Virus record (IMG/VR): IMGVR_UViG_3300042863_001217
Source: a virus
Taxonomy: Duplodnaviria; Heunggongvirae; Uroviricota; Caudoviricetes
Strand: one strand, 5' to 3'
DNA: 64,000 nucleotides
The stretch's first letter is position 1. The number at the start of each line of letters is the position of its first letter. Below the pieces are notes generated by a model. The model made no database searches. It worked only from the letters and a program-made list of their open reading frames with translations, and had not been told where the DNA came from. Below, one piece after another: positions 913 through 58,965 of the stretch. The translations under genes were made by a program, and so were the position numbers.

Positions 913-2511
913 TTAGTTTCATCTCTCATAGTTAGTTCAAGTCTCTGGGAAAATTAGATTTTGGGAAAATTTCAGCTAGGGAAAACCCCACCAAACGCTT
1001 CACACCATTAGGTACCCACATGGTCGTTCCGACCCAAATCTAGGCCCTGCTTAGTTTCTGGCACACTACTAATACACATGGATGTGGTATCCCAATTTCT
1101 ATTCTGTACCAGTGATTGCTCTGGCCAACTCGCAGTTACTCTGATCCTCTTTAAATACCATTGGCGTGGACGTGTGACCATAGTAAGTCTTGGATAGTCG
1201 CTGGGGTTTTTGGCATTCTGCAGGGTCAGTCTTGGTCTAGGTCACTGATTAGTTATATGGCTCAGATCAAGTGTGTAAGACACATCACTCTGTGTACTCT
1301 CTTTTTTTTCGCTGGTCCTTAAGGTATTCTGGTTCTTTAAGTACTAAGACATTTTAAGTGTCTAAGTGTCTAAGTTAATCCTCTATGGTTTATCTGAGTA
1401 CTCTGAATGCTCTGATACCTGGAAGTCATTTCTTGTCGCGCGCGCTTCATGTCGATCGGGCCCTTGGAGCTTAGTCCCCCGGGGACCCAATTTTTTGGGA
1501 ACCGGCGACATTGAACAAGTCGCGATTCTGTCGGGCCTGTCTGGCTCTTGAGTACTCTTTGTTTTGGGGGTATACAATCGAGGGTCTGATCCGAGTCCTC
1601 TAAGTGGTTTGAGTTGTTTGGCGCCATGAATAGGCCCTGAAGCGCTGGCCCCGGGGCGAGATAGTTAACGCCCATAGTTGACAGTCGAAAATGCGCTATA
1701 GCTAATATAGTAAGTGAAGGTCCATACCTTAAAATCGGCGTTTAATCGCGAGACATGCGCAATGCGCTTTTTAAAACCATGAATGGATCATGAGTGCTTA
1801 GTGTCTTATATGCTCCATGTGTTATATTAGGCCTTTATATACTCTGAGGCTTATAGAGCTCTCATGTGTATATGCTATATGTGTATATGTTTATACCCTA
1901 TATGGTTAATTAGCTTTATTAGCTTTATTGCTCTATATGGCTTAATTAGCTTATTTGTCTTAATTGCGTACAGGCTAAGGCAGGTAAGCTCTGGCGTACT
2001 GTTGGTGCTCTAGGCTCTATAGAGCTCTGTAGCTCTCTGTCTCTCTACTGTTATTGGCTAATCAGCTGATACTGTTGGTGTGCTGGTGCTCTTGGTGTGT
2101 CTGTGCTCTCTGTAGTACCTATTAGCCTATTAGTCTATTGCTAATATTAGCTCTCTGGTGAATTATTAGTCCTCTGTAGATATTAGCGCTATATTTGCTT
2201 CCGGCGAGCGCTCTGGGAGCTTATTTGGACTTATTTAGCTCCTGGGAAGCTCCTGGTGACTATATTTAGCTCCCGGAGAGCTCCTGGGAAGCTTCCTGGG
2301 GCTTACTCTGGGGAAGCTCCTGGGGACTTACTCCTGGAAGCTTCCTGGGAGCGCTGCTGGCGCTAATCTTACCTCTGGCGTGAAATCCTACTTTATATGC
2401 TCCGGCGGGGCTTTTGTTTCAAAGTGATCTGGGTAGTCTGGGGTCCTTGCACGAAATGTTCGTAACTTTACTAAAAATAAGTGCTTAAATATTTTTTTAT
2501 TTGGATTATTA

Positions 2512-2548
2512 TGTGTATATTTACTCTATAATTAAAACACTAAACAAT
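2512..2548 (+). promoter_or_regulatory. Conserved promoter/leader module (GTGTATATTTACTCTATAATTAAAAC...) directly upstream of the ATG
   Basis: One of at least 7 near-identical copies in the plus cassette. Contains a TATAAT -10-like hexamer. The copy runs into the start codon ATGTCAAA. Confidence 0.45.
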
Positions 2549-3046
2549 ATGTCAAACATGATTTTTAACCAAGAGAAGATTAACCAAGTAGATTTTATTA
2601 ATGGCCGTACTGGTCAGTATAGAGCAGTAGTAAAAGTTAAAGCCGGTTTTATGACCGTAGTAGATGACTTAGGTATACAATGTAACTGGGCTTCAGGTGC
2701 CAGATGGAAGTCTGCCTTATCTGTATTCCAATCATTTAAACGTGGTGCTTTACAGACCATTGAATTTAAGGCTGATGGGTCTGACTCTTGGCTTACTGTC
2801 TTTGCCCGTAAAGGTAATAAGATCATGTTAATGGACACTGATATGTTCTTAACTATGACTGTCGGTGATATTAACCAAGACTGGTCTACCACTAACCTTT
2901 ATAGTCAAGCTAACTATAAGATGGCTGGAGCTAAGACATGGGCTGATAAAGCCTTTGTTAGTAATACTGTTACTATAGAGGAGTTAAATCCTATTATAGC
3001 TGGTGTTGACTTCTCTGAGTCTTTGGCTGCCTTAGCTGCTCTTTAA
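2549..3046 (+). CDS. Hypothetical early/accessory protein (start trimmed to MSNMIFNQ...)
   Basis: In-frame ATG immediately after the conserved leader module. The annotated upstream M would lie inside the promoter element. Confidence 0.5.
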   Translation: MSNMIFNQEKINQVDFINGRTGQYRAVVKVKAGFMTVVDDLGIQCNWASGARWKSALSVFQSFKRGALQTIEFKADGSDSWLTVFARKGNKIMLMDTDMFLTMTVGDINQDWSTTNLYSQANYKMAGAKTWADKAFVSNTVTIEELNPIIAGVDFSESLAALAAL

Positions 3047-3093
3047 GATGTTCGTAACTTTTATCAGTTACCTATGTTCCATGTCATTTAAAT

Positions 3094-3129
3094 TGTGTAT
3101 ATTTACTCTATAATTAAAACTTAAACAAT
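3094..3129 (+). promoter_or_regulatory. Conserved promoter/leader module
   Basis: TGTGTATATTTACTCTATAATTAAAACTTAAACAAT followed by ATGTCAAAA. Confidence 0.45.
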
Positions 3130-3525
3130 ATGTCAAAAATTAATCAATTCGATCGTCAGTCATTACGCGCACTTCGTGCAGATTTGGACTCAGCAATGGC
3201 TGCCATTGCAACTAAGTATGGTATTCAGTTAAATGCTGGTAATATCTCATTCACATCAGATACTGCTACTATTAAAGTGGCTGCTGGTATTATCAAGAAC
3301 GGTACAGCTGTTACTGCTGAAGCCAAAGCCTTTGATCAGTATAAGCGTATGGTAGGTCTGGGTCACTTAAGTGTTGGTGATAGCATTACTCTTCAAGGTA
3401 AAGCATATACCATCACTGGTTATAAGCCTCGCTCTAGTAAAGCGCCTGTATGTGTTGAACATCGTGGTCGTGGCTTTAAGGTGTCAGTTGACATGGTTAA
3501 GATGTACAACTCAGTGCCTGCCTAA
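3130..3525 (+). CDS. Hypothetical protein
   Basis: 131-aa ORF preceded by the conserved module and followed by a hairpin plus T-run. Confidence 0.5.
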   Translation: MSKINQFDRQSLRALRADLDSAMAAIATKYGIQLNAGNISFTSDTATIKVAAGIIKNGTAVTAEAKAFDQYKRMVGLGHLSVGDSITLQGKAYTITGYKPRSSKAPVCVEHRGRGFKVSVDMVKMYNSVPA

Positions 3526-3549
3526 CTGTTAATAACTTTTGTGAAAATA

Positions 3550-3582
3550 GGTTGACAATTGCTTTGGGTTGTCAACCTTTTC
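3550..3582 (+). terminator. Rho-independent terminator-like hairpin
   Basis: GGTTGACAA-ttgctttggg-TTGTCAACC followed by TTTT. Confidence 0.45.
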
Positions 3583-4010
3583 ACGTATATTTACATATGA
3601 ATTTAAAAATAAGACACATGAAGTAGATGCTTAAAAATCAAAAAAGAGGTAGCACCTCAACAAGGGTTCGCTTTTTTCTCGGAGCGCAGAGGGTAGACTC
3701 CGACCTACGTGACACCCCCTCCCTCGATAGTGGTCCAAATGTTCGTAACTTTTATGAAAATAAATGCGCAATTGTTTTGGGTTGTCATTTAAATCACGTA
3801 TATTTACTATGTAATTAAAAATAAGCTATATGACGTAGATGACTAAAAATTCAAAAAGGGATAAAATCCCAACAGGGGCGGTCCTTTCAAAAGAAGGAGG
3901 AAGAGTAGACTCCGACCTGCTTTATATTTTTTTTATAAAGGCTGTTCATAACTATGTTAATAACTTTATTGAATTATTTTTAGGGGCCTATGTCCGGTTA
4001 AAGAAATTTG

Positions 4011-4046
4011 TTGTATATTTACTGTATAATTAAAACACTAAAAGAT
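4011..4046 (+). promoter_or_regulatory. Conserved promoter/leader module
   Basis: TTGTATATTTACTGTATAATTAAAACACTAAAAGAT followed by ATGTCAAAC. Confidence 0.45.
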
Positions 4047-4364
4047 ATGTCAAACATCAAAGATCAAATTCAGTCATGGGTAGCTACCGAAGCTCAAGCT
4101 ACTATTAATAACTACTATACTAAGGCATTGCCTAGTTTGCGTGTTCCAGAGCTTACCGTTAAATTTGGACAGAAATATGCCCAAGTCTGGAATGGTACTA
4201 CTATATGGGCTTTTATTGCTTTAACTGATGAGGTTGCCAAAGCACAACGTGTAGGTGACTTATTGAAGCCTGCTTCGTGGAGGGCTCCAGCTAAACATAG
4301 TCGTGGTAACATTATTGAAGGTACCGCTGCTTATGGTCCTTATGGTCCAGAGTACATAAAATAA
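4047..4364 (+). CDS. Hypothetical protein (start trimmed to MSNIKDQ...)
   Basis: ATG directly after the leader module. 105 aa. Confidence 0.5.
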   Translation: MSNIKDQIQSWVATEAQATINNYYTKALPSLRVPELTVKFGQKYAQVWNGTTIWAFIALTDEVAKAQRVGDLLKPASWRAPAKHSRGNIIEGTAAYGPYGPEYIK

Positions 4365-4406
4365 TTTGAAAATACTTGTCTAAATATTTTTTTATGTCGA
4401 GTATTA

Positions 4407-4443
4407 TGTGTATATTAGCTTTATAATTAAAAACAAACAGATC
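4407..4443 (+). promoter_or_regulatory. Conserved promoter/leader module (variant)
   Basis: TGTGTATATTAGCTTTATAATTAAAAACAAACAGATC followed by ATG. Confidence 0.4.
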
Positions 4444-4821
4444 ATGCCTTATATTTCAAAAGAACAAGTTAAAGTAAAACGAGAAGCCCTTAAGAAAGCC
4501 TTACCTCAGTTTAAGATGTCTATTACTACTGATAACTATAGTGGTATTAAAGTGGCTATCATGAAAGGTCCAGTTGATTTCGGTATTGAGTATGCTCAGT
4601 TAAATGAGTATGCTGATTATCGCGAACCACGTTGGGACAGAGACACTGAACAATATGTGTCCAATCCAGCTATAGCTGACCTAATGGAGACTGTGATGCC
4701 TATCTTAAATGATGGTATGCGTGAAGGTCATGATGATAGTGATTATGGTCATATACCTGATTACTATACTTGGGTTCATATTGGTCAATGGGATAAAGCC
4801 TACGAGGTGGTTAATGCGTAA
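4444..4821 (+). CDS. Hypothetical protein (MPYISKEQ...)
   Basis: ORF beginning after the leader module. 125 aa. Confidence 0.5.
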   Translation: MPYISKEQVKVKREALKKALPQFKMSITTDNYSGIKVAIMKGPVDFGIEYAQLNEYADYREPRWDRDTEQYVSNPAIADLMETVMPILNDGMREGHDDSDYGHIPDYYTWVHIGQWDKAYEVVNA

Positions 4822-5155
4822 ACTTAAAAAGTCTGATGTTAATGCTGATACACTGATGAGGTGGTCTAATCGTAAGTTAGGTCCCTCTAGGTGCAAACGT
4901 ATATTGATTGTAGATCGTAAAAGCCCTGATTACGGTTGGTATGATTGGCATGGTACAGTCTACATCAATATACGCAATATTAGTTCTATGACTTCAGTAT
5001 ACAGAACTATGGCGCACGAATGGACTCATGCTCAACAAACATATGGTCGGTATAATGCCTATCATAAGAAGCATGGCTATAAAAACAATCCATATGAGGT
5101 TGCTGCCCGCCGGAGAGAAAGAACTTGCTTTAGTGAATTGTTCGTAACTTTATAG
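4814..5155 (+). CDS. Small HExxH protein, putative zinc metallopeptidase-like
   Basis: Start ATG overlaps the stop of the upstream gene (aATGcgTAA). Begins MRKLKKSD. Contains MAHEWTHAQQ (an HExxH motif). The C-terminal codons overlap the TTGTTCGTAACTTTATAG box. Confidence 0.35.
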   Translation: MRKLKKSDVNADTLMRWSNRKLGPSRCKRILIVDRKSPDYGWYDWHGTVYINIRNISSMTSVYRTMAHEWTHAQQTYGRYNAYHKKHGYKNNPYEVAARRRERTCFSELFVTL

Positions 5156-5194
5156 AAAATAATTCACAAAAAGCTTTGGGTTGTCGTTTATATC

Positions 5195-5230
5195 GTGTAT
5201 ATTTACTCTATAATTAAAACACTAACAGAT
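5195..5230 (+). promoter_or_regulatory. Conserved promoter/leader module
   Basis: CGTGTATATTTACTCTATAATTAAAACACTAACAGAT followed by ATGTCAAAA. Confidence 0.45.
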
Positions 5231-5533
5231 ATGTCAAAAGAAACAATTTTAGTCCACACTCAATTTTACGAAAACTACAACGTCGGTCCTGATGGATTCG
5301 GTGAAACTCCATCTTGGAAAGCCAAAGGTGGTCATACCTTCTCAATTGAGATGGATGCTGATCTTTTAATGTACTCTGACTCTAAGGCTATTTTTAGCAA
5401 AATGTTAGAGATGCATAACACTATTGCAGAGCGTTTTGAATATATAGAGTATGAAATTCAATGGTCTAAACCAAGTCTTCTTGGGTATCAGGCTGATTAT
5501 ATAGCAGCTAACGAGGCTTTACAAACAGCCTAA
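5231..5533 (+). CDS. Hypothetical protein (MSKETIL...)
   Basis: 100-aa ORF after the leader module. Confidence 0.5.
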   Translation: MSKETILVHTQFYENYNVGPDGFGETPSWKAKGGHTFSIEMDADLLMYSDSKAIFSKMLEMHNTIAERFEYIEYEIQWSKPSLLGYQADYIAANEALQTA

Positions 5534-5586
5534 TCTTTTTTTGAAACAATTCATAATTTAACCATATAAAAATAAAAACAAATCTT

Positions 5587-6738
5587 ATGTCAGCAATCGC
5601 AACATTATCATCAGCAGTTCTTGAAAATCGTAGAGCTGAAACACGTAACTCTCAGTCAATTCGTAAAACTGTATCAGTACGTGATATTAACCTTGTTAAC
5701 GATACAACTATCGAGTATCAAGGTAAACGTCTAGAGATTACATCAGACGCATTCAAGTCTCTTATGAAATTGATCGGTATGTCAGCAACCTTTGCTGCTA
5801 AGTTCGAATCTCTATTTAACCCTGAGACCAAAGCAAAATTCGTTAACCAAATGAAAAACGCTATGGCAGCTCAGTTGAATGAGATCACCATTATATTGTC
5901 TCCACAGACTAAGAAGGTAGTTGGTTTCTCTAAGAATGCAACAGACCTTATTTCTCACGAACGTTTCATTTCATTGGCTGATCAAATTATCGATCAACAT
6001 GGCTTTGAAGTTACCAATTGGGGTGTAGATGCTACTAAAGGTTCAGTTATTATCAATGCTTTTAATCCTAAGGCACAATTTGACCTTGCAGGTCTTGGTT
6101 TAGCCAATGAGGTTTTCACCGCTGGTGTTACTCTTAAGAATTCACCTTTCGGAGGTATACAAGTTATGCCTTATGTTAACAGAATGTTCTGTACGAATGG
6201 CTTAACTACAGGATTGGCTAGCGAATCTTATTCACTATCTAATTTAAATCCTGAATCGATGGAGAACTTTCACCAACATATGAGTCAATTGCGTAAGAAT
6301 GGATTTGTACCTACTAATTTTGCTGAAACTGTGAAATTGGCTACTCAAACTCCAGCTTCTCTATGGGAAATGGAACGTGCATATAGTTCAATCAAACCAA
6401 TGGTTGGCGCACAAGCTGACTCTTGGATCCCTTTGAATGATAACTACTCAGCGTATACTAAAGCAGGTATGATGCCAGAAGGTTTCTCAGCTGCTCAAAA
6501 GAAAAACGCACGTACTGATCAATCAATCTGGTCATTGGTAAATGGTATGACTCACGTCGCTACACATGCACCAGAACAATTAGCATTTAACATGACTGAT
6601 AGAGAATCTACAGACTTGATGGTTAAAGCTGGTGGTATCTTCGGTAAGCAATTTGATTTAGGTAACACAATTCGTTCACCTTTCAAAGCAGATGCTCACT
6701 TAGAGGCTGAAATGCAAGTAGGAGCTTTATTAAACTAA
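5587..6738 (+). CDS. Hypothetical protein, 383 aa
   Basis: Long ORF with no recognisable motif. Lacks the conserved leader module. Followed by a long structured 3' region and a terminator. Confidence 0.55.
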   Translation: MSAIATLSSAVLENRRAETRNSQSIRKTVSVRDINLVNDTTIEYQGKRLEITSDAFKSLMKLIGMSATFAAKFESLFNPETKAKFVNQMKNAMAAQLNEITIILSPQTKKVVGFSKNATDLISHERFISLADQIIDQHGFEVTNWGVDATKGSVIINAFNPKAQFDLAGLGLANEVFTAGVTLKNSPFGGIQVMPYVNRMFCTNGLTTGLASESYSLSNLNPESMENFHQHMSQLRKNGFVPTNFAETVKLATQTPASLWEMERAYSSIKPMVGAQADSWIPLNDNYSAYTKAGMMPEGFSAAQKKNARTDQSIWSLVNGMTHVATHAPEQLAFNMTDRESTDLMVKAGGIFGKQFDLGNTIRSPFKADAHLEAEMQVGALLN

Positions 6739-6883
6739 AAACTCGTAACCTCATCCAGATCACAGACAATCGAAACTGTAAAATGGAGCTGTTGAAGATG
6801 AGGTTACTATGAAAACTGGGAGTATGGTTAGAGCAGCGTAAATTCTAGATAGCATTAAGACTCACGACCTAAGTCCCTTCCAA

Positions 6884-6913
6884 GCCGGTACTACATGTAC
6901 CGGCTTTCTTTTT
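6884..6913 (+). terminator. Rho-independent terminator
   Basis: GCCGGTAC-tacat-GTACCGGC followed by TTTCTTTTT. Confidence 0.6.
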
Positions 6914-6994
6914 GCTCCAAAGGCTGCCATTGGTGAATTATTTTCGCTTTTTTATGAAAATAAACGCAAATAAGCTTTGGGTTGTCATTTATTA

Positions 6995-7031
6995 TGTGTA
7001 TATTTACCTTATAATTAAAACACTAACAGAT
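6995..7031 (+). promoter_or_regulatory. Conserved promoter/leader module
   Basis: TGTGTATATTTACCTTATAATTAAAACACTAACAGAT followed by ATG. Confidence 0.45.
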
Positions 7032-7226
7032 ATGAAAGTCACAGTCAACATTTTACCATTTTTAGGAGCCTTAGTTATGGGTTTCATTAGTTACTCTATT
7101 ATGCAAGGTACTGCTCAAGAAGTGGTTCATTTTGCGGGTGTATTAAACGAGATCTTCACATTGGTTATGGCCATGATGATGACCTTAGGTCTTTTGATAA
7201 TGTCAATCTCAAAGGCTGCCAAATAA
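7032..7226 (+). CDS. Small membrane protein (MKVTVNILPFLGALVMGF...)
   Basis: 64 aa with two hydrophobic segments. ATG sits directly after the leader module. Confidence 0.4.
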   Translation: MKVTVNILPFLGALVMGFISYSIMQGTAQEVVHFAGVLNEIFTLVMAMMMTLGLLIMSISKAAK

Positions 7227-7273
7227 ATTGTTCGTAACTTTTACCTAATTTATTTTGGGTTGTCAAATAAAAG

Positions 7274-7310
7274 TTGTATATTAGCTCTATAATTAAAAGT
7301 CAAACACTAT
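7274..7310 (+). promoter_or_regulatory. Conserved promoter/leader module (variant)
   Basis: TTGTATATTAGCTCTATAATTAAAAGTCAAACACTAT followed by ATGTCAAAA. Confidence 0.4.
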
Positions 7311-8453
7311 ATGTCAAAATCATCTTACACAATTCACAAATTAGAGGCTGTTCCTAATAAGAAGCCTAATTTCAATCTTAAAAATATTGCTGATTCCGAG
7401 GACCAAGTCCTGATCACAGCAGAAAATCCTAAGTATGCCTATGTAGCAGAAAATCAGGGTCGTATTATTAACATCAACGGAGTTATGGCTTCAGGTGTTT
7501 TAAAGATGACCTCATCAGCTGACTACTATGATGCTTATGGTCTTAAACAAAAAACCAAGGTTGAGGTAGCCGCACCTAAAGCAGCTCCACTTAAAATCTC
7601 ATTAACCAAGTTAGATGACCTTAATTTCTCTGACGAGTTATTTAACCCTCTAACTACTGGTTTGGCAATAGACCAATTCTTATCTAATGACGGTGGCTTT
7701 ATGCCAGGTTCAAACATCATGGCTGCAGGTGCACCGGGTGTAGGTAAGACTACAGTTCTTTTAGAAACCTTATACGCAGTACAAAAGCAAGATCCTACCA
7801 AGCGTGTGCTGTTCATCTCAGCTGAAATGAACCAATTGGACATGGCTAGATACCTAAAAAGATTCCCACATTGGGGTCAGTTACCAATCTTATTCTTAAG
7901 TGACTATGTTGACCAAGATCCTCAAGCCGTAATAGAGCAAACATTGCAACAAGGTTGGGACATAGTCTTAACAGATAGTTACACCGAGGTGAATGACACA
8001 GTTAAAGAAGCTTGTAACATGACCAGAGGTAAAACTGAAAAGTGGTTCTTGGACATGATGATTGCCAATAACCAAGGTAAGAACCAAACCAAGAAGTATA
8101 CTACCTTCATCACCATTTTACAGTTATCTAAGGGTGGTACATTCGTCGGGTCCAACAAACTAAAACACATGACCACAGCCATGCTAGAATTAAACTGGAA
8201 AGGCAATGAGAATTCAGCTGAGCGTTATATGGAATTCAGTAAGAACCGTTTAGGCCAAGTAGGTCATAAGTTATTCTTTGACTTTACAGACGGAGTTAGT
8301 TTTGACACCAAGAGATACAAGCGAGATCTACTTAACTTGGAATTAATTGAGGATGAGAGAGCTAAGCTGACATCAGAAGAGGATAGCTTTGACCGTCTTT
8401 TCGGTGCTATACCTAATGAAAGTGACTCCACCCCGGCGGTAGAAGTAAACTAA
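7311..8453 (+). CDS. RecA-fold P-loop ATPase, DnaB-like helicase domain
   Basis: Walker A motif GAPGVGKTT. Downstream VLFISAEM resembles DnaB motif H1a (SLEM). ILQLSKGG resembles DnaB motif H3. Confidence 0.5.
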   Translation: MSKSSYTIHKLEAVPNKKPNFNLKNIADSEDQVLITAENPKYAYVAENQGRIININGVMASGVLKMTSSADYYDAYGLKQKTKVEVAAPKAAPLKISLTKLDDLNFSDELFNPLTTGLAIDQFLSNDGGFMPGSNIMAAGAPGVGKTTVLLETLYAVQKQDPTKRVLFISAEMNQLDMARYLKRFPHWGQLPILFLSDYVDQDPQAVIEQTLQQGWDIVLTDSYTEVNDTVKEACNMTRGKTEKWFLDMMIANNQGKNQTKKYTTFITILQLSKGGTFVGSNKLKHMTTAMLELNWKGNENSAERYMEFSKNRLGQVGHKLFFDFTDGVSFDTKRYKRDLLNLELIEDERAKLTSEEDSFDRLFGAIPNESDSTPAVEVN

Positions 8454-18295: not shown

Positions 18296-21016
18296 TTATG
18301 GTGCTATAGGATCTTCTTTTCTATTGTGTGTAATTATACCATTTGCTACGTATACATCATTAGACTCTACGTCTAATTTATAAACTTTAAATGATCCACT
18401 ATTTTTTACAATAGAAGTAATTAGATGTTCATATCCATCTTGATTAATAAATGAATCGCCAACTAAAATATCATTAGCTTTCATTACAGACCATACTGAA
18501 TTTCTTTTTATAATATGCACGTGATCTTCACTTGAAGTTAATAAACCATCATTAAAACTTAACACGCTATTTACAATGTGTTCAGTATTTTGAGTAACTG
18601 TAGCCGATGTATTAGATAAAGTTGGATTTGTTTGAGACCATTGTATTAAATTCTGATAATTATCTCCATCTGGCATATTACCTATTATCATTGAAGATAA
18701 TTCCATACCAATTGTTAACGATTCTATTGTAGCGTGAGTACCGTTTGATAATTTAACTAAAGTTCCTTCTAGTAAACATCCTCCTGGAGTTCCGGCACAT
18801 AATTCAAATATAGTATACTCAGGTGGTGTTGTATCAGGCTGAACTAATCTCCAACACGTTCCAGATGCATCGTCTACATATACTAATTGATCAAGATTAT
18901 ATAAATCACTATATGGTCCCACATACGAATATACACCTCCATCATTTCTTTCTGCTAACCATGATCTATATACAGTTGGAGTAGGTTTATCTGGTGTTGC
19001 TGTAGGATTTGGAATATATTCGCTGTAACTACATCCAAATTCACTTGTACATCCAATAGTTTGGTCAATTACGAAAATATCATCTGAAATTATAAATACC
19101 ATTTCTGATGAGTCCCATGTACTTGGCACTGAACTACTACATACTGAATATACTGCTCCAGATCTTCCATTATAATAATAAGGTGAAGCTAGCATTTCAT
19201 TAAATGTTCTTTGTATATAACTTCCAAAATTATAACCTAATCCATATCTAAATATGTCCACTGTATCAGCTACCCATACATGATAACATGTACCCGAAGG
19301 TGCATCAGTTGGTCTCGGAGTTGATGTCGGAGGAACTAAGGTCGGTTCTGGTATATATGTAGTTGGTGTTGGTGGAATCGGTGTTGCTGTTGGATAACCT
19401 GCACCTGCACCCGAAGATGAATAACATTGAGATCCAATTTGTGTTATAATAATATTTTGATAATATGCAATTGCTTTTACACATAAAACAACAGGTTGAG
19501 AATATGGTGTTAAATACACTGTATCACTTCTACCATCACACATTGTATATTGTATGTAACCACTATTCCAACTATCTGTTAATTGAAAATTATAAGTATA
19601 ACAAGGTACAGCTGTTGCTGTTGGTGGAATTGGCGTTGCCGTTGGTAGGTTTAACGAACTGTCAAGTATTCTTACATTAACTGTATCTAATACAATACTA
19701 CTAGCATTAGTAAGTTTTACAATCAACCATTCATCACCTTCTGTTAAATTATCAGATTTTGTGGTTAATTCAAATACACCTTGACCATTTACACCCGAAG
19801 TAGTAGTAATTACTACATAACCATTGTTGATAGCTTCAACCAAATCACTTGCATTTGCATTATATGGTCCTAATTCCCACCAAAGTGTTGTTGGTGATGC
19901 ATTTAAATATTGTGTGTCAACTACAAATGTAATTTTTACATTTTCTTCATTGACTTGTGTTTTATTAGCAGAAATACTATAAGTAGGTGGAAACCAATAC
20001 TCATCAGTTACATAACCAAGTACACTATCGTAGTATACAGCATATGCTGATCCTGCTTCATAATACCATCCACTGGGCGCTGTTTCACACGTAGCTATAT
20101 AACTATTGTCACATAAAGTTTGTATGCCAGAGATTAAGCCTGTGTTGATCCAGTTACCGTTACTATCAAATGTAACTTGATCGTATCTTCCAACTGGAGT
20201 AGTTGCAGTAGATAAGCCATAATAATAATTACCAGGATATGTTGATGCTAATGAACTTTGTACCATTAATTGTGCATCGTATGAATTACAAATACCTAAT
20301 AAATTATATTCAAAATAAGTTTGATCTGTTGAATTATTAACATCGTCATTTCCACCTGGAACATCATCAGTTATTAAAATAATAAGTTTAATTGCATCAG
20401 ATCTAAATGATCCTGCAATATTATTAGACAATATTTCATTGATCCCTAAACCACCGGGTTCTGGCGCACCTTGACCATATCCTAAAGGAAAACTAGGTGT
20501 AGCTAATAAATTAAGTTTTGTTTGAAAATCAGTAATTGAACCAACATTACCTAATGGTTGCATACATGTAATAAATTGAGTTCTATTATTAAATGTGTTT
20601 ATCACAGCTTTTTGTGATGCTGGTAAATTTAAGTATATAGATGTCTGTCCATAGTTGTTTGACGGTGGAGATGTTAGATTACCGGCATATTCATCAAATA
20701 TGCAAAGTCCTACTCTATAATTACCTAATGATTCACTATCGATAGTACTTAAAATATTAGCAATACCAGCTTTAACACCATTGATTGCACCGTCCATAGA
20801 TCCAGTATAGTCAACTAAAAATACTATATCTAACCCTGTAGTACATTGAGTTGGAATAGTTAATTTATTTTGGTTTATAGCTAGACCATTTGTAGAATAA
20901 GTCTTAAAAACATTTGAATTGTTAATATTATTAGGACTTAATGGATCATAAGCTAAACTTACAAAACTAGTCGGTGGTACACAAGATTGCCCATATGAGC
21001 TTACAGATAATGCCAT
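18296..21016 (-). CDS. vWA-domain protein with C-terminal Hint (Hedgehog/intein-like) domain and PT-rich linkers: 'Vint'-like structural/adhesin protein
   Basis: vWA MIDAS motifs DIVFLVDYTGSM and LIILITDDVPGG. C-terminal ~150-aa module starts GG|CLLEGTLV and ends ...ANGIITHN, then 8 more residues. Confidence 0.6.
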   Translation of the reverse strand: MALSVSSYGQSCVPPTSFVSLAYDPLSPNNINNSNVFKTYSTNGLAINQNKLTIPTQCTTGLDIVFLVDYTGSMDGAINGVKAGIANILSTIDSESLGNYRVGLCIFDEYAGNLTSPPSNNYGQTSIYLNLPASQKAVINTFNNRTQFITCMQPLGNVGSITDFQTKLNLLATPSFPLGYGQGAPEPGGLGINEILSNNIAGSFRSDAIKLIILITDDVPGGNDDVNNSTDQTYFEYNLLGICNSYDAQLMVQSSLASTYPGNYYYGLSTATTPVGRYDQVTFDSNGNWINTGLISGIQTLCDNSYIATCETAPSGWYYEAGSAYAVYYDSVLGYVTDEYWFPPTYSISANKTQVNEENVKITFVVDTQYLNASPTTLWWELGPYNANASDLVEAINNGYVVITTTSGVNGQGVFELTTKSDNLTEGDEWLIVKLTNASSIVLDTVNVRILDSSLNLPTATPIPPTATAVPCYTYNFQLTDSWNSGYIQYTMCDGRSDTVYLTPYSQPVVLCVKAIAYYQNIIITQIGSQCYSSSGAGAGYPTATPIPPTPTTYIPEPTLVPPTSTPRPTDAPSGTCYHVWVADTVDIFRYGLGYNFGSYIQRTFNEMLASPYYYNGRSGAVYSVCSSSVPSTWDSSEMVFIISDDIFVIDQTIGCTSEFGCSYSEYIPNPTATPDKPTPTVYRSWLAERNDGGVYSYVGPYSDLYNLDQLVYVDDASGTCWRLVQPDTTPPEYTIFELCAGTPGGCLLEGTLVKLSNGTHATIESLTIGMELSSMIIGNMPDGDNYQNLIQWSQTNPTLSNTSATVTQNTEHIVNSVLSFNDGLLTSSEDHVHIIKRNSVWSVMKANDILVGDSFINQDGYEHLITSIVKNSGSFKVYKLDVESNDVYVANGIITHNRKEDPIAP

Positions 21017-21029
21017 TATTTATTTTATT

Positions 21030-24000
21030 TTATTTCGGTGTACAATTTGAGTTAGTAAATATTGCAGTTACTGTAAATCCAACTCCATCGTAGTCTGATT
21101 GATTACCAGTAACATATACATATTTATTATCCCATAATTGAGCAGCGACATTATTGTATATGCTTTCTGCAAATTTAGTATTACTTGCATGATCCCAAAC
21201 TAATAATACTGATGCGGTTCCAGTTGCATCTACACCCCATAGAGTGTATCTAACTTCTTGTGTATTATCACTTACACCGTATGAAGACTCAATTCCAGTT
21301 AAAATCATACCTTCTAAAGCAAATGTATATGGTATTAATACAAATGATTTTTGAAGTGATTGATTTGTAATTTTTTCATCTCTTGGAGTTGCACAAATTG
21401 ATACATGTTCATAACATGATCCTATGCCCGCTTCTCCAGGTTGTCCAGGTTGTCCATTGATACCTGATGTACCATTTGTTCCTGAAGAACCATTTGTACC
21501 ATTTGTTCCTGAAGAACCATTAGTTCCAGATGTACCATTTGTACCATGTGTTCCTGAAGTTCCATTAGTACCACTTGTACCATCTCTACCAGAAGAACCG
21601 CTTGTACCATCTTTACCTGAAGTTCCATTAGTACCACTCGTACCATTTAAACCAGAAGTACCATTAGTTCCTGATGTTCCATTAGTTCCATTAATTCCTG
21701 AAGAACCATTAGTTCCAGATGTACCATTAGTACCACTTGTACCATTAGTTCCAGATGTACCATTAATACCGCTTGAACCGCTTGTACCATCTCTACCTGA
21801 AGAACCATTTGTACCAGAAGTACCATTAGTTCCTGAAGAACCATTAGTTCCTGATGTTCCATTAGTTCCAGATGTACCATTAGTACCATGTGTTCCTGAA
21901 GTTCCATTAGTTCCAGAAGTTCCATTAGTACCGCTTGTACCATTAGAACCATTTATTCCTGAAGATCCATTAGTTCCTGAAGTTCCACGCTCACCGTTTG
22001 TACCACTAGTTCCATTTGTACCTGAAGAACCATTAGTTCCTGAAGTACCATTTGCGCCAGATGTACCATTAGTTCCTGAAGAACCATTAGTACCACTTGT
22101 ACCGTTAGTTCCATGTGTTCCTGAAGAACCATTAGTTCCTGATGTTCCATTAGTTCCTGATGTTCCATTAGTACCACTTGTTCCATTAGTTCCATTAGTT
22201 CCTGAAGTTCCACGCTCTCCGTTTGTACCACTAGTACCATTTAAACCAGATGTTCCATTAGTTCCTGAAGAACCATTAGTACCACTAGTACCATTAATTC
22301 CAGAAGAACCACTAGTACCATTAATTCCAGAAGAACCATTTGCACCTGAAGTTCCATTTATACCATCTCTACCTGAAGAACCATCTGTACCTGAAGTTCC
22401 ACGCTCTCCGTTTATACCATCAGTTCCACTTGTTCCATTTATACCACTAGTACCATTAGTTCCAGAAGTTCCGTTAGTTCCTGAAGTTCCGTTAGTTCCA
22501 TGTGTACCTGAAGTACCATTAGTTCCAGAAGTTCCGTTAGTTCCACTTGTTCCATTTGCACCTGAAGTTCCGTTAGTACCATCTCTACCTGAAGAACCAT
22601 TTGTACCACTAGTACCATTAGTTCCTGAAGTTCCGTTAGTTCCACTTGTTCCATTTGCACCTGAAGTTCCGTTAGTTCCATGTGTACCTGAAGTTCCGTT
22701 AGTTCCAGAAGAACCATTAGTTCCTGAAGATCCATTTGTTCCAGAAGAACCATTAGTACCTGATGTACCACGTTCTCCATTTATACCACTTGAACCATCA
22801 GTTCCAGAAGTTCCATCTAATCCATTACGACCATCAATACCACTAGTTCCATTAGTTCCAGAAGTTCCATTTATACCGCTTGTGCCATTTGAACCATTAG
22901 TACCACTAGTTCCATTTGTTCCAGAAGAACCATTAGTTCCATTTGTTCCAGAAGAACCATTAGTACCAGATGTACCATTAGTTCCACTAGTTCCATTTGT
23001 TCCAGAAGAACCATTAGTTCCTGAAGTTCCATTTGAACCATTAGTACCACTCGTACCGTTTGTTCCAGAAGAACCATTAGTTCCTGATGTACCATTAGCA
23101 CCGCTTGTGCCATTTGAACCATTTAAACCCGATGTACCATTAGTTCCAGAAGAACCATTAGTTCCAGAAGTTCCAGTATCACCTTTAGCGCCTGAAGTTC
23201 CATTAGTACCAGATGTACCATTAGTTCCAGAAGAACCATTAGTTCCTGAAGAACCATCAGCACCATCAAATCCAGATGTACCATTATTACCATTAGTTCC
23301 TGAAGTTCCGTTAGTTCCTGAAGTTCCGTGTGATCCATCCATTCCACTAGTACCATTAATACCAGAAGATCCATCATTACCTCTTGAACCTGAAGTTCCA
23401 TCAGTTCCATTTGAACCTGAAGTTCCATTAGTTCCTGAAGTTCCATTAGTTCCTGAAGAACCATTAGTTCCTGAAGTTCCATCAGATCCATTTGTACCAT
23501 TTGTTCCATTTGTTCCAGAAGATCCATCAGAACCATTAGTTCCATTAGTTCCATTTGTTCCAGAAGAACCATTAGTTCCATTTGTTCCAGAAGAACCGCT
23601 TGTTCCAGGATTTCCAGTTACACCGCTTGTTCCATTTGTTCCATTTGTTCCAGAAGAACCATTTGTTCCAGAAGAACCATTAGTTCCTGAAGAACCATTT
23701 GTTCCTGAAGAACCATTAGATCCATTTGTTCCAGATGTACCATTAGAACCCGCAGGTCCTTCAGTTGCACCTAAAGATGAAACTATATGTGAATAATTTG
23801 AAACGCCTTCTGTATAAAATTTAATAGTTCTATTTTGATTATCATCGTTAATAGCATAAATTTGAACTAATACTTTATCAGTAGGACTTATATAATGTTG
23901 TTCTAAAAATAAGTCTTGATATACATCCACTGGAATTGCAGTAGAAGTGTCCCATCCTATTAATGTAGGTGTAGTTGTTCCCCACACAGCAATTGGTATT

Positions 24001-24914
24001 CCACCTGCATCTGTACGAGTAACCTTAACATATACTTGAATAGCATGTGAATCTACTTCTTTAGTGAAGTGCATTAAAAATGATTGAATACCAGCAGATA
24101 CTACTGCAACACCTAATCCAACTGGAGTTATAAATTGAGTAACTAATACATCTGATTGCAACGGAGTTAAATCAGTAGTTACTATTTGTTGTACACTAGA
24201 TACTGGGATTGGTGAAATTTCATTAAGATCATTTGCACCGCCACCATTATTAACTACAGTAACTGATTCATTCATATAGAATATTTGACCAGTGCTATAA
24301 CCTGCTTCTCCTTGTAAACCATTAACTCCACTTGAACCTGAAGTTCCATCAATTCCTGATGTACCATTAGTACCACTTGTTCCATCAATTCCAGAAGTAC
24401 CATTAGTACCATCTAAACCGTTTAAACTAACTTCTACCCATGGATCATTACCATTAGTTGAAGATGGTGTATATAATTGTGGTAAAAATGTTGGAGGTCC
24501 ACCTATAACATTTGTGTATATTTGTGTACTATTAGGTTTTAAAAGACCTGCGCGAACCCATTGTGGTAACGCTTGCCATTCAGTATCACCTAAAACACCA
24601 TTATTGCCCCAATATCCTTTAGGTATTAAGACATAAAATTTATTTTCTTCAATGACATAAACTAGCATACCAACTGATCGAATACCCGTTGTATATCCAC
24701 CATCGTTTGAAACTGTAAAACCAATATGTGTAACTGGTGCAGGTGCTTCACCCCAAATAGGTAAGGCATTTCTTTCTTCAATTGTAAATACCTTTTGATA
24801 CCCACCCTTTACATGTTGTGCATGTACAATTCCTTCATAAGGACTTAATGATGAACTTGGCGAAATAAAATTACCAAAGGCGTATTGTGTTGAAACTGGT
24901 CTAGTAAATCCCAT
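21030..24914 (-). CDS. Collagen-like repeat protein (virion fibre candidate), 1294 aa
   Basis: Several hundred residues of uninterrupted G-X-Y triplets (GTNGTSGTNGSSG...), flanked by non-collagenous N- and C-terminal domains. Confidence 0.7.
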   Translation of the reverse strand: MGFTRPVSTQYAFGNFISPSSSLSPYEGIVHAQHVKGGYQKVFTIEERNALPIWGEAPAPVTHIGFTVSNDGGYTTGIRSVGMLVYVIEENKFYVLIPKGYWGNNGVLGDTEWQALPQWVRAGLLKPNSTQIYTNVIGGPPTFLPQLYTPSSTNGNDPWVEVSLNGLDGTNGTSGIDGTSGTNGTSGIDGTSGSSGVNGLQGEAGYSTGQIFYMNESVTVVNNGGGANDLNEISPIPVSSVQQIVTTDLTPLQSDVLVTQFITPVGLGVAVVSAGIQSFLMHFTKEVDSHAIQVYVKVTRTDAGGIPIAVWGTTTPTLIGWDTSTAIPVDVYQDLFLEQHYISPTDKVLVQIYAINDDNQNRTIKFYTEGVSNYSHIVSSLGATEGPAGSNGTSGTNGSNGSSGTNGSSGTNGSSGTNGSSGTNGTNGTSGVTGNPGTSGSSGTNGTNGSSGTNGTNGTNGSDGSSGTNGTNGTNGSDGTSGTNGSSGTNGTSGTNGTSGSNGTDGTSGSRGNDGSSGINGTSGMDGSHGTSGTNGTSGTNGNNGTSGFDGADGSSGTNGSSGTNGTSGTNGTSGAKGDTGTSGTNGSSGTNGTSGLNGSNGTSGANGTSGTNGSSGTNGTSGTNGSNGTSGTNGSSGTNGTSGTNGTSGTNGSSGTNGTNGSSGTNGTSGTNGSNGTSGINGTSGTNGTSGIDGRNGLDGTSGTDGSSGINGERGTSGTNGSSGTNGSSGTNGSSGTNGTSGTHGTNGTSGANGTSGTNGTSGTNGTSGTNGSSGRDGTNGTSGANGTSGTNGTSGTNGTSGTHGTNGTSGTNGTSGTNGTSGINGTSGTDGINGERGTSGTDGSSGRDGINGTSGANGSSGINGTSGSSGINGTSGTNGSSGTNGTSGLNGTSGTNGERGTSGTNGTNGTSGTNGTSGTNGTSGTNGSSGTHGTNGTSGTNGSSGTNGTSGANGTSGTNGSSGTNGTSGTNGERGTSGTNGSSGINGSNGTSGTNGTSGTNGTSGTHGTNGTSGTNGTSGTNGSSGTNGTSGTNGSSGRDGTSGSSGINGTSGTNGTSGTNGTSGTNGSSGINGTNGTSGTNGTSGLNGTSGTNGTSGKDGTSGSSGRDGTSGTNGTSGTHGTNGTSGTNGSSGTNGTNGSSGTNGTSGINGQPGQPGEAGIGSCYEHVSICATPRDEKITNQSLQKSFVLIPYTFALEGMILTGIESSYGVSDNTQEVRYTLWGVDATGTASVLLVWDHASNTKFAESIYNNVAAQLWDNKYVYVTGNQSDYDGVGFTVTAIFTNSNCTPK
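21434..23760 (-). repeat. Tandem 9-bp-unit DNA repeats encoding collagen G-X-Y triplets
   Basis: Low-complexity periodic DNA. Produces artefactual ORFs on the opposite strand. Confidence 0.7.
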
Positions 24915-24934: not shown

Positions 24935-26239
24935 TTATACTACGTTTAGTGTTAATGCACCAGATAGAGGTTGGTCAAATACTTCATATAAAGTGTATGC
25001 ATTTCCTAAATGTGTGAAATCTAATTTAGATACAAATGTAAATGGAATTCCATTCGCAGCATCTGCGAATTTAGCTGTCGTTACATAGTCAGTTGTACTA
25101 ACTGATTTTGGAATTGCAATGTAATATCTTTGTGAAGAAGCCACATTAGCCGCAAAATACAATGTACCGTTAGGTATTTCAGTATTATTTATAGCACTAA
25201 ATGTATCAAAATAAATTTGTTCTACATTATTAGCAGTTCCTTCATTCGCTAACATATCGACAAATACTAAATCAAAATTAGTTGTAGTTGTATTATCGTT
25301 TAAGTAATAATCAGAAGAAGGTGTAGTTAATGAATTAACTCCTGGATAACCTCCATTTCCGTTCCAGTGGAACCAGAATGTAGATGATCCTTCAGGAACT
25401 GGCGTTGCAGTCGGTTCTGGAATTGAAGTTGCAGTCGGTGCAGGAACTGGCGTTGCAGTCGGTTCTGGAATTGAAGTTGCAGTCGGTGCAGGAACTGGCG
25501 TTGCAGTCGGTGCAGGAATAGCTGTCGCTGTAGGTGCAGGAACTGGCGTTGCAGTCGGATCTGGAATTGCTGTCGCTGTAGGCGCAGGAACTTCAGTCGC
25601 TGTAGGATCTGGAACTGGCGTTGCAGTTGGGATCACTTCAGTCGCTGTAGGATCTGGAACTGGCGTTGCAGTCGGGATCACTTCAGTTGCTGTAGGTACA
25701 GGAACTTCAGTCGCTGTAGGATCTGGAACTGGCGTTGCAGTCGGGATCACTTCAGTTGCTGTAGGATCTGGAACTGGCGTTGCAGTTGGATCTGGTATAG
25801 CTGTTGCTGTAGGTGCAGGAACTGGCGTTGCAGTCGGGATCACTTCAGTTGCTGTAGGATCTGGAACTGGTGTTGCAGTCGGAATAATCGCAGTCGCAGT
25901 TGGCAAAATTGTTGCCGTAGGAACAGGAACTGGTGTTGCAGTAGGTGGTATAGGTGTAATATCAGTAACAAATAAAGTATTTGAAACGGTTTCACATAAA
26001 TTAGAGTCAATTATTTTAACTTTATATTGACCCGGTGCTAAACCACTATTACCCGTATTATCGGTTGCATTACCAAATGTAAACGTATTGGATACAATGT
26101 TATTGACAGGATTTTGAAATGTCGGATATGCATTGTTAGGTATCGGTTGATTTGTACCTGCGTTCAGTAAAGTATATTGGTAAGGTCCGACTCCTCCAAC
26201 TACTTGTACTGTAACTGTTCCATTATTAATGTTTGCCAT
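24935..26239 (-). CDS. Pro/Thr-repeat protein (PTATPVPDPTATEVI...) with globular N- and C-terminal domains
   Basis: About 170 aa of PT-rich tandem repeats. Confidence 0.55.
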   Translation of the reverse strand: MANINNGTVTVQVVGGVGPYQYTLLNAGTNQPIPNNAYPTFQNPVNNIVSNTFTFGNATDNTGNSGLAPGQYKVKIIDSNLCETVSNTLFVTDITPIPPTATPVPVPTATILPTATAIIPTATPVPDPTATEVIPTATPVPAPTATAIPDPTATPVPDPTATEVIPTATPVPDPTATEVPVPTATEVIPTATPVPDPTATEVIPTATPVPDPTATEVPAPTATAIPDPTATPVPAPTATAIPAPTATPVPAPTATSIPEPTATPVPAPTATSIPEPTATPVPEGSSTFWFHWNGNGGYPGVNSLTTPSSDYYLNDNTTTTNFDLVFVDMLANEGTANNVEQIYFDTFSAINNTEIPNGTLYFAANVASSQRYYIAIPKSVSTTDYVTTAKFADAANGIPFTFVSKLDFTHLGNAYTLYEVFDQPLSGALTLNVV

Positions 26240-26264
26240 TTGTTTATATTTTTATTTTAATTTT

Positions 26265-36740: not shown

Positions 36741-36879
36741 AGTTTTAAATTTAATTGGTTAATATTGTTAATGTACACGAAAAAAACGACATAAAAAACT
36801 ATTTATCGTTTATTTTCAATTTATTCATACTATTTATATGAAAGCTTCTAATTTTGTTTTAATTATAGAGCTAATATAC

Positions 36880-36920
36880 AAAAAAAAGCCCAAACTAAAA
36901 AATTTGGGCTTAATTATTTT
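36880..36920 (-). terminator. Terminator hairpin (GCCCAAA...TTTGGGC) plus T-run. Copy 1 of a repeated ~60-bp element
   Basis: A near-identical element recurs at 58786-58850, each time followed by the AAAAGTT(A/G)CGAACAATT box. Confidence 0.55.
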
Positions 36921-36939
36921 CATAAAAGTTGCGAACAAT

Positions 36940-58535: not shown

Positions 58536-58785
58536 TTTTAATTGTTTTTAATTGTTATAGGGTAAATATACATATAATTTTCGACATAAAAAAATATATT
58601 TTAATAAAGTTACGAACAATCTTTCTTTTTATGTTTGTCTTTACGAAAATACTTCTTTTTATTACGATAAGGCGCAGGCACTTTAAGAGCATCAAACCAT
58701 TCCTGTAATGTTATGTTAATTTTTTCTAATTTGATTTTTTTAGTCTCTTTCATGATCTACTGTTTTAATTATAAGGCTAATATAC

Positions 58786-58817
58786 TAAAAAAAGCCCAAA
58801 CTAAAAAATCTGGGCTT
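58786..58817 (-). terminator. Terminator hairpin. Copy 2 of the repeated ~60-bp element
   Basis: AGCCCAGA-ttttttag-TTTGGGCT plus T-run on the minus strand, downstream of the tRNA. Confidence 0.5.
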
Positions 58818-58891
58818 AACTATTTTTAAAAAAGTTACGAACAATTGCATATTAAACCAAAAAGACCCATCGAATGATGAGTCTTCTTTAG

Positions 58892-58965
58892 TGGAGGTGA
58901 CAGGAATCGAACCTGCGACCCTCTGCGTGCAAGGCAGATGCTCTAGCCAACTGAGCTACACCCCC
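58892..58965 (-). tRNA. tRNA-Ala: tRNA-Ala (anticodon UGC)
   Basis: Manual fold: acceptor stem GGGGGTG/CACCTCC with the G3:U70 alanine identity pair, D-arm GCTCAGTTGGCTAGAGC, anticodon loop CTTGCAC, T-arm GCAGGTTCGATTCCTGT, discriminator A. CCA is not encoded. Confidence 0.85.

Follow-up and report, generated by a model that had tools for sequence, protein, structure and literature searches.

Two tandem candidate small RNA genes in a tailed-phage contig and the RNA family to which they probably belong

A stretch of 64,000 nucleotides from a virus of the Caudoviricetes (IMG/VR record IMGVR_UViG_3300042863_001217; the whole stretch is called the window below) contains two similar units arranged head to tail at positions 3524–3949. 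Each carries a promoter-like module, an open reading frame (ORF) of 63 or 64 aa and a conserved GC-rich block. The question raised by this locus is whether the units are small protein genes, regulatory leaders of the genes that follow, DNA sites, or genes for small RNAs. From comparison with homologues, they are very probably members of a family of non-coding RNA (ncRNA) genes. The fuller statement, that these are phage-specific ncRNA genes with promoters of their own and that the products act in trans through an invariant module, is given slightly better than an even chance of holding in all its parts.

The two repeated units were recognized in a preliminary description of the sequence, which placed them at 3580–3740 and 3790–3960; the repetition was confirmed, and the limits were corrected to 3524–3736 and 3737–3949, with a period of 212–213 nt from start to start. 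Four parts were distinguished in each unit: an 85-nt promoter module, an A-rich leader of approximately 36 nt, a hairpin (P1) and a core of approximately 53 nt. The motif CACGTATATTTAC(A/T)AT..AAAAATAAG, described as the beginning of each unit, is present and is in fact the core of the 85-nt promoter module (repeat family D2). The shared sequence GTAGATG(C/A)(T)TAAAAAT(C/T)AAAAAG was found as described, at 3622–3646 and 3834–3858, and forms part of the A-rich leader. The 64 kb contain the GC-rich block GTAGACTCCGACC at exactly two places (3693 and 3905; 0.16 expected); of the details given for it, GGTAGAC applies to unit 1 only, unit 2 having AGTAGAC. The T-run 3' of unit 2 lies at 3927–3934.

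A covariance model (R1) was built from 39 cores. Over the window it returned the two units (44.7 and 49.6 bits) and nothing further in 64 kb. In viral loci it gave 80 matches from 50 sources and then 126 from 100 sources (108 distinct matches), with up to six copies per locus, within 5 kb (L020), and five in L071. When viral contigs were scanned for the string GTAGACTCCGACCT, at least 120 stretches were obtained; among the matches listed, the element was clearly recognizable in approximately 40 of 96 distinct contexts, as a short unit right behind a promoter and often ending ...CCUUAUAUUUUUUUU. Additional copies lacking the exact string were found in the same loci by profile search. The string GGAAGAGTAGACTCC was present in at least 120 stretches of viral contigs, and GCAGAGGGTAGACTCC, the signature of the type represented by unit 1 (type A), in 28.

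The consensus of the family consists of an optional P1, A-N-G-G-(G), a hairpin (Pb), RAGRG, UAGACUCC and NNC, followed by CUAC, CUGC or ACGUC; its 3' module is spelled R-A-G-R-G, U-A-G-A-C-U-C-C, N-N-C. The covariance analysis that had been proposed as a check was performed on the homologues. Pb pairing covaries, and over the whole structure none of 500 shuffles and none of the slid controls reached the observed covariation. At the first Pb pair, 66 of the 108 distinct sequences have C-G and 39 have U-A, the remaining 3 being unpaired there; the inner pairs are free to vary (UCG/CGA, CUG/CAG, UUGC/GCGA, CCGU/AUGG) and the loop is frequently of the GNRA type. As judged from the alignment, the Pb helix is proven by covariation. 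P1 keeps its pairing through different bases in the two units: GAGG-uagca-CCUC in unit 1 (3646–3658, +) and GGGA-uaaaa-UCCC in unit 2 (3858–3870, +), the changes in unit 2 being compensatory with respect to both unit 1 and the closest relative, L216 (GAGG-uaaga-CCUC). Of 108 members, 54 have a P1-like hairpin, a number that compares with 33 ± 5 for shuffled flanks; by the same comparison P1 is optional, many members beginning at GG immediately 3' of the promoter. The stem GAGGG...CCCTC (3689–3693/3722–3726) of the preliminary description exists in unit 1 only and is lost in relatives, the conserved helices being P1 and Pb. Its main proposal, duplicated small structured RNA genes, is borne out by the compensatory helix changes, by a reading frame conserved in few relatives (see below) and by more than 100 distinct homologues in phage contigs.

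The module itself was compared in 20 copies that had been recruited by no search string. A54, G55, U58, A61, C62, U63, C65 and C68 were present in 20 of 20, so that the near-invariance of the module is not merely an effect of recruitment. Its invariant segment GUAGACUCC has a mean predicted unpaired probability of 0.4–0.8. Three pairings were considered for the module: a 3-bp mini-hairpin (Pc, GRG-UAGA-CUC; 98.5% paired, A-U 85, G-U 21), a 4-bp hairpin (P3, GUAG-ACUCCNNC-CURC; 90% paired, with position 71 being A in 77 and G in 31 and always pairing with U58) and a closing helix (Pa, GGG/CCU; 83% paired). As modeled, the module can form a small hairpin which exposes (A)CUCCNNC in its loop. RNAalifold applied to a plain MAFFT alignment recovered the 3-bp Pc alone. 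A three-way junction closed by GGGUCG/CGACCU was rejected; the bases following GGG covary with those preceding RAGAG and not with the invariant 3' strand, and the extended closing helix of that model was unpaired in 76–85 of 108 sequences.

In the window, the core of RNA 1 (type A; 3662–3714, +; R1 44.7 bits, E 2e-10) comprises GGG (3664–3666), Pb (3667–3688, UUCGCU...AGCGCA), the linker GAGGG (3689–3693), the invariant UAGACUCC (3694–3701) and GAC-CUAC (3702–3708), with a possible 3' hairpin at 3693–3696/3705–3708. The core of RNA 2 (type B; 3873–3926, +; R1 49.6 bits, E 9e-12) comprises GGGG (3875–3878), Pb (C3879–G3900, with an internal loop GG/G and UCCUU/AAGGA at 3882–3898), the linker AAGAG (3901–3905), UAGACUCC (3906–3913) and GAC-CUGC (3914–3920), the possible 3' hairpin being 3905–3908/3917–3920. 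Type A reads GGGUUCG...CGCAGAGGGUAGAC and type B GGG(G)CGG-hairpin-GGAAGAGUAGAC...CCUGCUUUAUA. Type A was found in Tenacibaculum phage Larrie (genus Cbastvirus) at 19417–19468 (+), and type B in the same phage at 18783–18836 (+) and in L032, L092, L105, L111, L125, L148, L168 and L224. Both types turn up again in unrelated phages whose promoters are of other types, and they are adjacent in Larrie. The core of L216 is that of unit 2 but for one base (3914). On this distribution the RNA cores are two old and distinct isotypes and not the product of a recent local duplication of one RNA; as to the duplication proposed earlier, the promoter-leader part alone looks like a local duplicate. The type B gene is present twice in L216 (7300–8740), within a direct repeat of approximately 1045 bp of that 256-kb contig, the repeat being a real duplication or else an artefact of assembly.

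Both the 63-aa ORF (3627–3818) and the 64-aa ORF (3839–4033) exist. If they were translated, the units would be small protein genes and the conserved block would encode the motif RVDSDL. This reading is favored by the ATG with which both ORFs begin behind an A-rich leader as long as those of real early genes, by the frame, which is intact from ATG to RVDSDL with a spacing of 212 at both points, and by a 44-aa ORF in the same frame retained by L216. The ORFs had been described as sharing RVDSDL alone, which was wrong, M-x-K-N-x-K-R being common to both. Against translation, an ATG-initiated ORF of at least 40 aa in the RVDSDL frame was found in just 6 of 104 family members; the median stop-to-stop length in this frame is approximately 27 codons, within which most members stop, and numerous members begin at GG right behind the promoter, without any ATG. 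Both window ORFs read on through the next promoter module and end in its TAATTAAAA, and the differences between the units compensate RNA pairing while being non-conservative for protein (GSTS versus DKIP). A Pfam search gave no match for the 63- and 64-aa ORFs, and the leader of L216 differs from that of unit 2 by indels. Because the frame is unconserved, the Pfam search was negative and the L216 leader carries indels, the units are considered non-coding on comparative grounds, and translation of the two ORFs as functional proteins is very improbable. In practice, such loci should be annotated as RNA genes instead of small ORFs.

A shorter reading frame was found at the same place of the leader in units 1 and 2, L216, L069, L032, L092, L105 and L111, namely a mini-ORF of the form ATG-NNN-stop (TAG/TAA). 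In the leader of unit 1 (3609–3645, +) ATG AAG TAG (3618–3626) is followed by the ATG (3627) of the 63-aa ORF, and in that of unit 2 (3822–3857, +) ATG ACG TAG (3830–3838) is followed by the ATG (3839) of the 64-aa ORF. The mini-ORF may serve to stop ribosomes, loaded by a standard leader, ahead of the structured RNA. The bar minigenes of lambda read AUG AUA UAA. Like them, the mini-ORF has two codons (AUG-NNN-stop) and follows a leader competent for translation, and it is conserved in the lineage of the window; unlike them, it precedes a structured RNA.

Ten copies of the promoter core consensus TATATTTACnnTRTAATTAAAA were found in the window (0.18 expected), most of them preceding plus-strand early genes between 2500 and 8500. 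An upstream element, TGTTMRTAACTWT, lies before every core at a fixed 59–60 nt (48–49 nt in two cases). The promoter module of unit 1 (3524–3608, +; direct-repeat family D2, 85 nt, 74%) contains the element TGTTAATAACTTT (3527–3539), an inverted repeat (3546–3581) and the core TATATTTACATATGAATTTAAA (3587–3608), a variant of the early promoter; that of unit 2 (3737–3821, +) contains the element TGTTCGTAACTTT (3740–3752) and the core TATATTTACTATGTAATTAAAA (3799–3820). The two modules are 74% identical. TGTTAATAACTTT was also considered as a terminator and was rejected, its fixed distance ahead of each promoter core identifying it as an upstream promoter element. By consensus match, both units have a promoter of their own directly upstream, as had been proposed, and the homologues likewise stand behind promoters of their own: TAnnTTT[GA], the Bacteroidota promoter type, lies 16–22 nt upstream in 73 of 108 relatives, and TAnnTTTG is the promoter in most related contigs. 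A sigma-70 factor is encoded by relatives, and in contig L013 its gene adjoins the RNA genes; no sigma factor gene was found in the 64-kb window. The phage-specific promoter family was placed at 2457–7298 (+), 36857–36937 (−) and 58763–58843 (−) of the window, and start codons lie approximately 15–16 nt past the TATAAT of its core.

At the 3' end, a T-run of five or more follows 41 of 107 family copies, and tails of the CUUAUAUUUUUU type stand behind many members. The end signal of RNA 2 is an A/U-only palindrome, CUUUAUA-UUUUUUU-UAUAAAG (3921–3940, +), predicted to form a hairpin and including the T-run at 3927–3934. Two minus-strand "terminators" (3646–3658 and 3858–3870) were discarded as P1 hairpins read backwards beyond the leader A-run, and no minus-strand transcription is expected there. 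Approximately 30 nt downstream of copies with the GACACGUC tail (L020 7517, L101 2793, L048 8887), an A-run and a hairpin with a conserved CACAAC loop were observed (for example GUGGGA-CACAAC-UCCCAC); this hairpin may be an extra 3' domain or the terminator of that sub-type.

The units could instead be the 5' part of an early operon transcript, acting in cis as a put-like antiterminator, attenuator or riboswitch for the genes from 4047. The RNA does stand ahead of co-oriented early genes in the window and in the nearest relatives (in this lineage it heads an early block in which homologues of the 90-aa, 383-aa and 380-aa ORFs follow), unit 1 has no terminator, and the alternative module pairings (Pc or Pa against P3) could in principle act as a switch. 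Set against this, every downstream unit and gene has a full promoter module of its own. Neighborhoods were judged from contig flanks, and in the 81 informative loci the downstream gene was on the opposite strand in 35 and both neighbors in 31, with no copy lying inside a same-strand ORF. Larrie has three of its four copies, the two strong ones among them, on the plus strand, and every coding sequence but one on the minus strand. The T-runs behind 41 of 107 copies and the lack of any Rfam riboswitch or leader match also oppose a leader function. From the opposite-strand neighbors and the T-runs, a general role as 5' leader is ruled out at the level of sequence arrangement, and position and strand are seen to be independent of the neighboring genes. 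The cis-regulatory alternative of the preliminary description is for these reasons not retained; as an explanation of the family it is improbable, and a local cis effect in the window lineage is possible.

A DNA-level function was considered in the same setting. The conserved 20 bp would then be a site for protein binding, recombination, replication initiation or attachment, for which the conservation of the block as sequence and its position in the window lineage, adjoining replication-type genes (a KaiC/DnaB-like ATPase, 7311–8453), could be cited. The orientation of the block relative to the upstream promoter is, however, fixed in all lineages, the flanking helices covary in the manner of RNA, terminator-like tails follow many copies, and the copies are numerous and scattered. 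A DNA element is thought extremely unlikely.

The distribution of the family was then considered. The module 19-mer AGAGTAGACTCCRACCTRC was scanned against 185,579 bacterial and archaeal genomes and was found in seven stretches, all in contigs of metagenome-assembled genomes (MAGs) which are phage-like and which R1 identifies as containing ordinary family members. Since the 19-mer occurs in just these seven contigs, the family appears to be essentially phage-specific. It is almost confined to viruses of Bacteroidota. A-rich leaders precede the genes of the window, and none of the 56 larger ORFs has a Shine-Dalgarno sequence before it; together with an SprB repeat in one ORF, this fits a Bacteroidota host. 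Among cultured phages, Larrie has four copies at 16.9–19.5 kb, two of them strong and two weak, in unannotated gaps. A DNA similarity search of 3000–4400 against GenBank phages gave no match, and only short stretches of the family core were matched, in Larrie and immuto. The copy in Flavobacterium phage immuto (MW353175, 67454–67552; L263 2451–2549) is a variant with GGGCCGGUACGCC after UAGAC in place of UCCNNCCUAC. It falls below the R1 threshold, and in GenBank a hypothetical protein of 32 aa overlaps it on the opposite strand, so that a family variant is there misannotated as a protein on the wrong strand. With members in cultured phage-host pairs (Larrie, and the variant in immuto), the partner of the RNA could be sought and found by standard experiments.

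Database searches placed the units in no known RNA family. At the gathering threshold, Rfam 15 (4227 models) detected only a tRNA-Ala in the window (58892–58965), far from the units; between 3400 and 4100, with E values up to 10, only chance-level matches of 15–20 bits were obtained against thresholds of 70–80, and 12 related loci and the canonical copy region gave nothing. ARAGORN found one tRNA in the window, distant from the units, and no tmRNA or tRNA at the units. A full-text literature search with the motif gave two irrelevant primer matches, and no description of the family or of small RNAs (sRNAs) of Bacteroidota phages was found. The family may be among the 8,495 unnamed candidates of a large survey of viral structured RNAs (PMC10690425).

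These searches bear on a catalytic or ligand-binding RNA, such as a small self-cleaving ribozyme or an aptamer serving, for example, as a sponge for a signalling nucleotide. Conserved junction nucleotides combined with helices of free sequence are seen in ribozymes and aptamers, hammerhead and twister ribozymes occur in multiple copies in phage genomes, and one copy (L004) carries CUGAUGAG in an inserted arm. No ribozyme or riboswitch model of Rfam 15 matched, however, even at E up to 10; one solid helix with a 20-nt tail leaves little for a catalytic or binding pocket, and the hammerhead core (CUGANGA and GAAA around three stems) is not in the family consensus. A function of this kind is judged quite unlikely. 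The insertion in L004 (2157–2228, −) is approximately 40 nt long and lies in Pb, and CUGAUGAG is a hammerhead core word.

Several known systems resemble the family in part. Trans-acting sRNAs are encoded by phages, as in the case of lambda PreS/LPR1 (10.1101/2024.10.31.621285; review PMC12197685). RNAs of the PreS type, like the present family, are short non-coding phage transcripts with a promoter of their own; PreS-type RNAs appear during infection, and an action on host functions via a short conserved region has been proposed or shown for them. Neither by sequence nor by Rfam are the two related. PreS works together with Hfq in E. coli; the present family is multi-copy, occurs in many unrelated phages of one phylum and has an invariant block of 9–13 nt. 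Bacteroidota are not known to possess Hfq, ProQ or CsrA. The sibling sRNAs Qrr1–5 and OmrA/B are chromosomal and Hfq-dependent and have known targets. Here as there, the same short segment sits on divergent scaffold hairpins in several paralogous genes per genome, each with a promoter of its own; the genes of the sibling sRNAs also have their own terminators. This family differs in being phage-borne, with old isotypes (A, B and others) shared between phages.

The put sites of HK022, present in two copies per phage right behind early promoters, form two adjacent hairpins and act in cis on their own polymerase. The likeness lies in the two copies directly behind early promoters of a phage and in the two adjacent hairpins; put must precede the genes it serves, whereas many family members face away from their neighbors or end in a T-run. 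The c4 RNA of P1/P7 and the CI RNA of P4 (Rfam C4 family) are small structured antisense RNAs whose exposed loops pair with phage mRNAs; with the units, by contrast, cmscan gave no match and the window contains no complementary site. Solitary repeat units in phages, reportedly described by Camara-Wilpert et al. in 2023, are said to act as RNA anti-CRISPRs (Racr). Racr elements are likewise small promoter-driven RNA cassettes in accessory regions of phages, sometimes several per genome, and differ in copying the host CRISPR repeat, whereas the module 19-mer of this family is confined to the seven phage-like MAG contigs. A Racr or antitoxin-RNA mimic was accordingly rejected: AGAGTAGACTCCRACCTRC, the one 19-mer scanned, gave no array-like multiple matches in the genomes and so belongs to the repeats of no sequenced CRISPR array. 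The family is a new one within a known kind, the small RNA genes of phages, and is unusual in being phylum-wide and multi-copy with isotypes and an invariant module. By analogy its working is most like that of phage trans-acting sRNAs (lambda PreS) and of sibling sRNA families, although it is a member of none of these.

How would such RNAs act? That they work in trans through the invariant module is considered probable. The two stand-alone sRNAs, roughly 70–120 nt long, would be transcribed early from their own promoter modules, with the hairpins serving as a scaffold and the invariant module as the working surface. Following the logic of sibling sRNAs, an identical 9-nt seed, GUAGACUCC, would be presented on divergent scaffolds, several gene copies providing dosage. 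By pairing or in some other way, the seed would bind a single partner conserved across Bacteroidota hosts. Pairing through GUAGACUCC is favored because an identical short segment, divergent scaffolds and several copies are the pattern of sibling sRNAs; as a mechanism, base pairing is held tentatively, with clearly less than even confidence. A role in host take-over or anti-defence would suit the early setting of the counter-defence type. The early genes at 4047–5155 match DUF7717, LPD29 and, weakly, the metallopeptidase DUF6782 in Pfam. LPD29 (large polyvalent protein-associated), DUF7717 and DUF6782 are families which we take to be typical of early inter-genomic conflict proteins, and the region suggests host take-over or counter-defence.

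A number of observations weigh against the reading as sRNA genes acting through the module. As to translation, the closest relative L216 keeps the mini-ORF together with the in-frame ORF, and translation of the leader is possible in the window lineage, where it resembles the leader of a real gene. As to the transcript, the terminator scan recognized no terminator for unit 1, and read-through into unit 2 is possible. Members were recruited by module strings and the model was then built on them, whereby divergent members are under-sampled. The three pairings of the module are mutually exclusive and fit about equally, none of them with double changes; in the sub-type ending ...GACACGUCU, P3 is impossible and another register is needed, in which a 6-bp hairpin can form with UCCRAC again in an 8-nt loop. 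Folding of single sequences against shuffles gave unremarkable stability for the two units (z = 0.01 and −1.27), so that the support for structure is comparative and not thermodynamic. Finally, no meaningful complement of the module was found in the 64-kb window, and no Shine-Dalgarno sites that CUCC could mask precede the window genes.

In E. coli rRNA a single complement was found, at 16S 1309–1317 (GGAGUCUGC, the 5' strand of helix 42), which is at chance level with an estimated 0.3–0.6 expected. The duplex energy was −23.4 kcal/mol against a best value of −22.3 in 30 shuffles, and the flanking positions of the RNAs gave no consistent extension of the pairing across sub-types. With respect to this helix, the module complements the 5' strand and has the same sequence as the 3' strand. 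The 16S complement is a lead only.

With an invariant stretch of 12–13 nt and no target found, a protein decoy fits almost as well as pairing. The module would then be the site bound either by a host defence or RNA-processing protein, which it would titrate, or by a phage protein requiring an RNA subunit, and several gene copies would give stoichiometric amounts. The 12–13 consecutive conserved positions exceed the usual seed and include purines with no need to pair (A54, G55, G57–A61), the module has no settled secondary structure, and neither the window, its Shine-Dalgarno sites nor E. coli rRNA offered a complementary target. Up to six copies per locus, an early gene neighborhood of the conflict type and promoter-RNA cassettes common to phages of different promoter types also accord with a decoy; sharing of cassettes among phages is usual for anti-defence genes. 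On the other hand, no protein family was found to co-occur with the RNA across lineages within the contig flanks, and the module has no likeness of at least 19 nt to a host RNA that a defence protein would bind. The decoy or cofactor is a serious though minority possibility, and the present evidence does not separate it from base pairing.

A broader and more speculative form of the trans-acting reading, which we regard as rather doubtful, is that of a phylum-wide RNA effector, exchanged in the manner of a cassette among unrelated Bacteroidota phages, in which GUAGACUCC disables or hijacks one universally conserved host component. This component could be a defence nuclease, an RNA-binding immune protein or the translation apparatus. 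If true, it would represent an undescribed kind of RNA-based host take-over or anti-defence. Independently of mechanism, the sequence block of the family is conserved above any protein that these phages share, and such conservation across unrelated phages points to a partner, in the host or the infection cycle, that is both common and important. Few phage sRNAs are known, nearly all from phages of E. coli, and none comparable has been described from phages of Bacteroidota, a phylum of importance in marine, lake and gut habitats. The family comprises over 100 distinct members, with several copies in a genome, and is missing from Rfam and from GenBank annotation.

Other features of the window were recorded. 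The sole tRNA gene, tRNA-Ala(UGC), lies at 58891–58965 (−); a promoter module is located just downstream of it (58831–58843 with 58763–58784), and a further upstream element at 58606–58618. Many copies of GTTGCAGTC, spaced by multiples of 24 nt, occur at 25404–27444 inside two adjacent minus-strand ORFs, 24935–26239 and 26265–27944. The first of these has SprB-repeat and cornifin-like matches, from which the two are presumed to encode repetitive surface or fibre proteins. A collagen-like tail-fibre ORF of 1294 aa occupies 21030–24914 (−), and a 790-aa ORF inside it on the other strand (21424–23796, +) is most likely an artefact of the triplet repeats.

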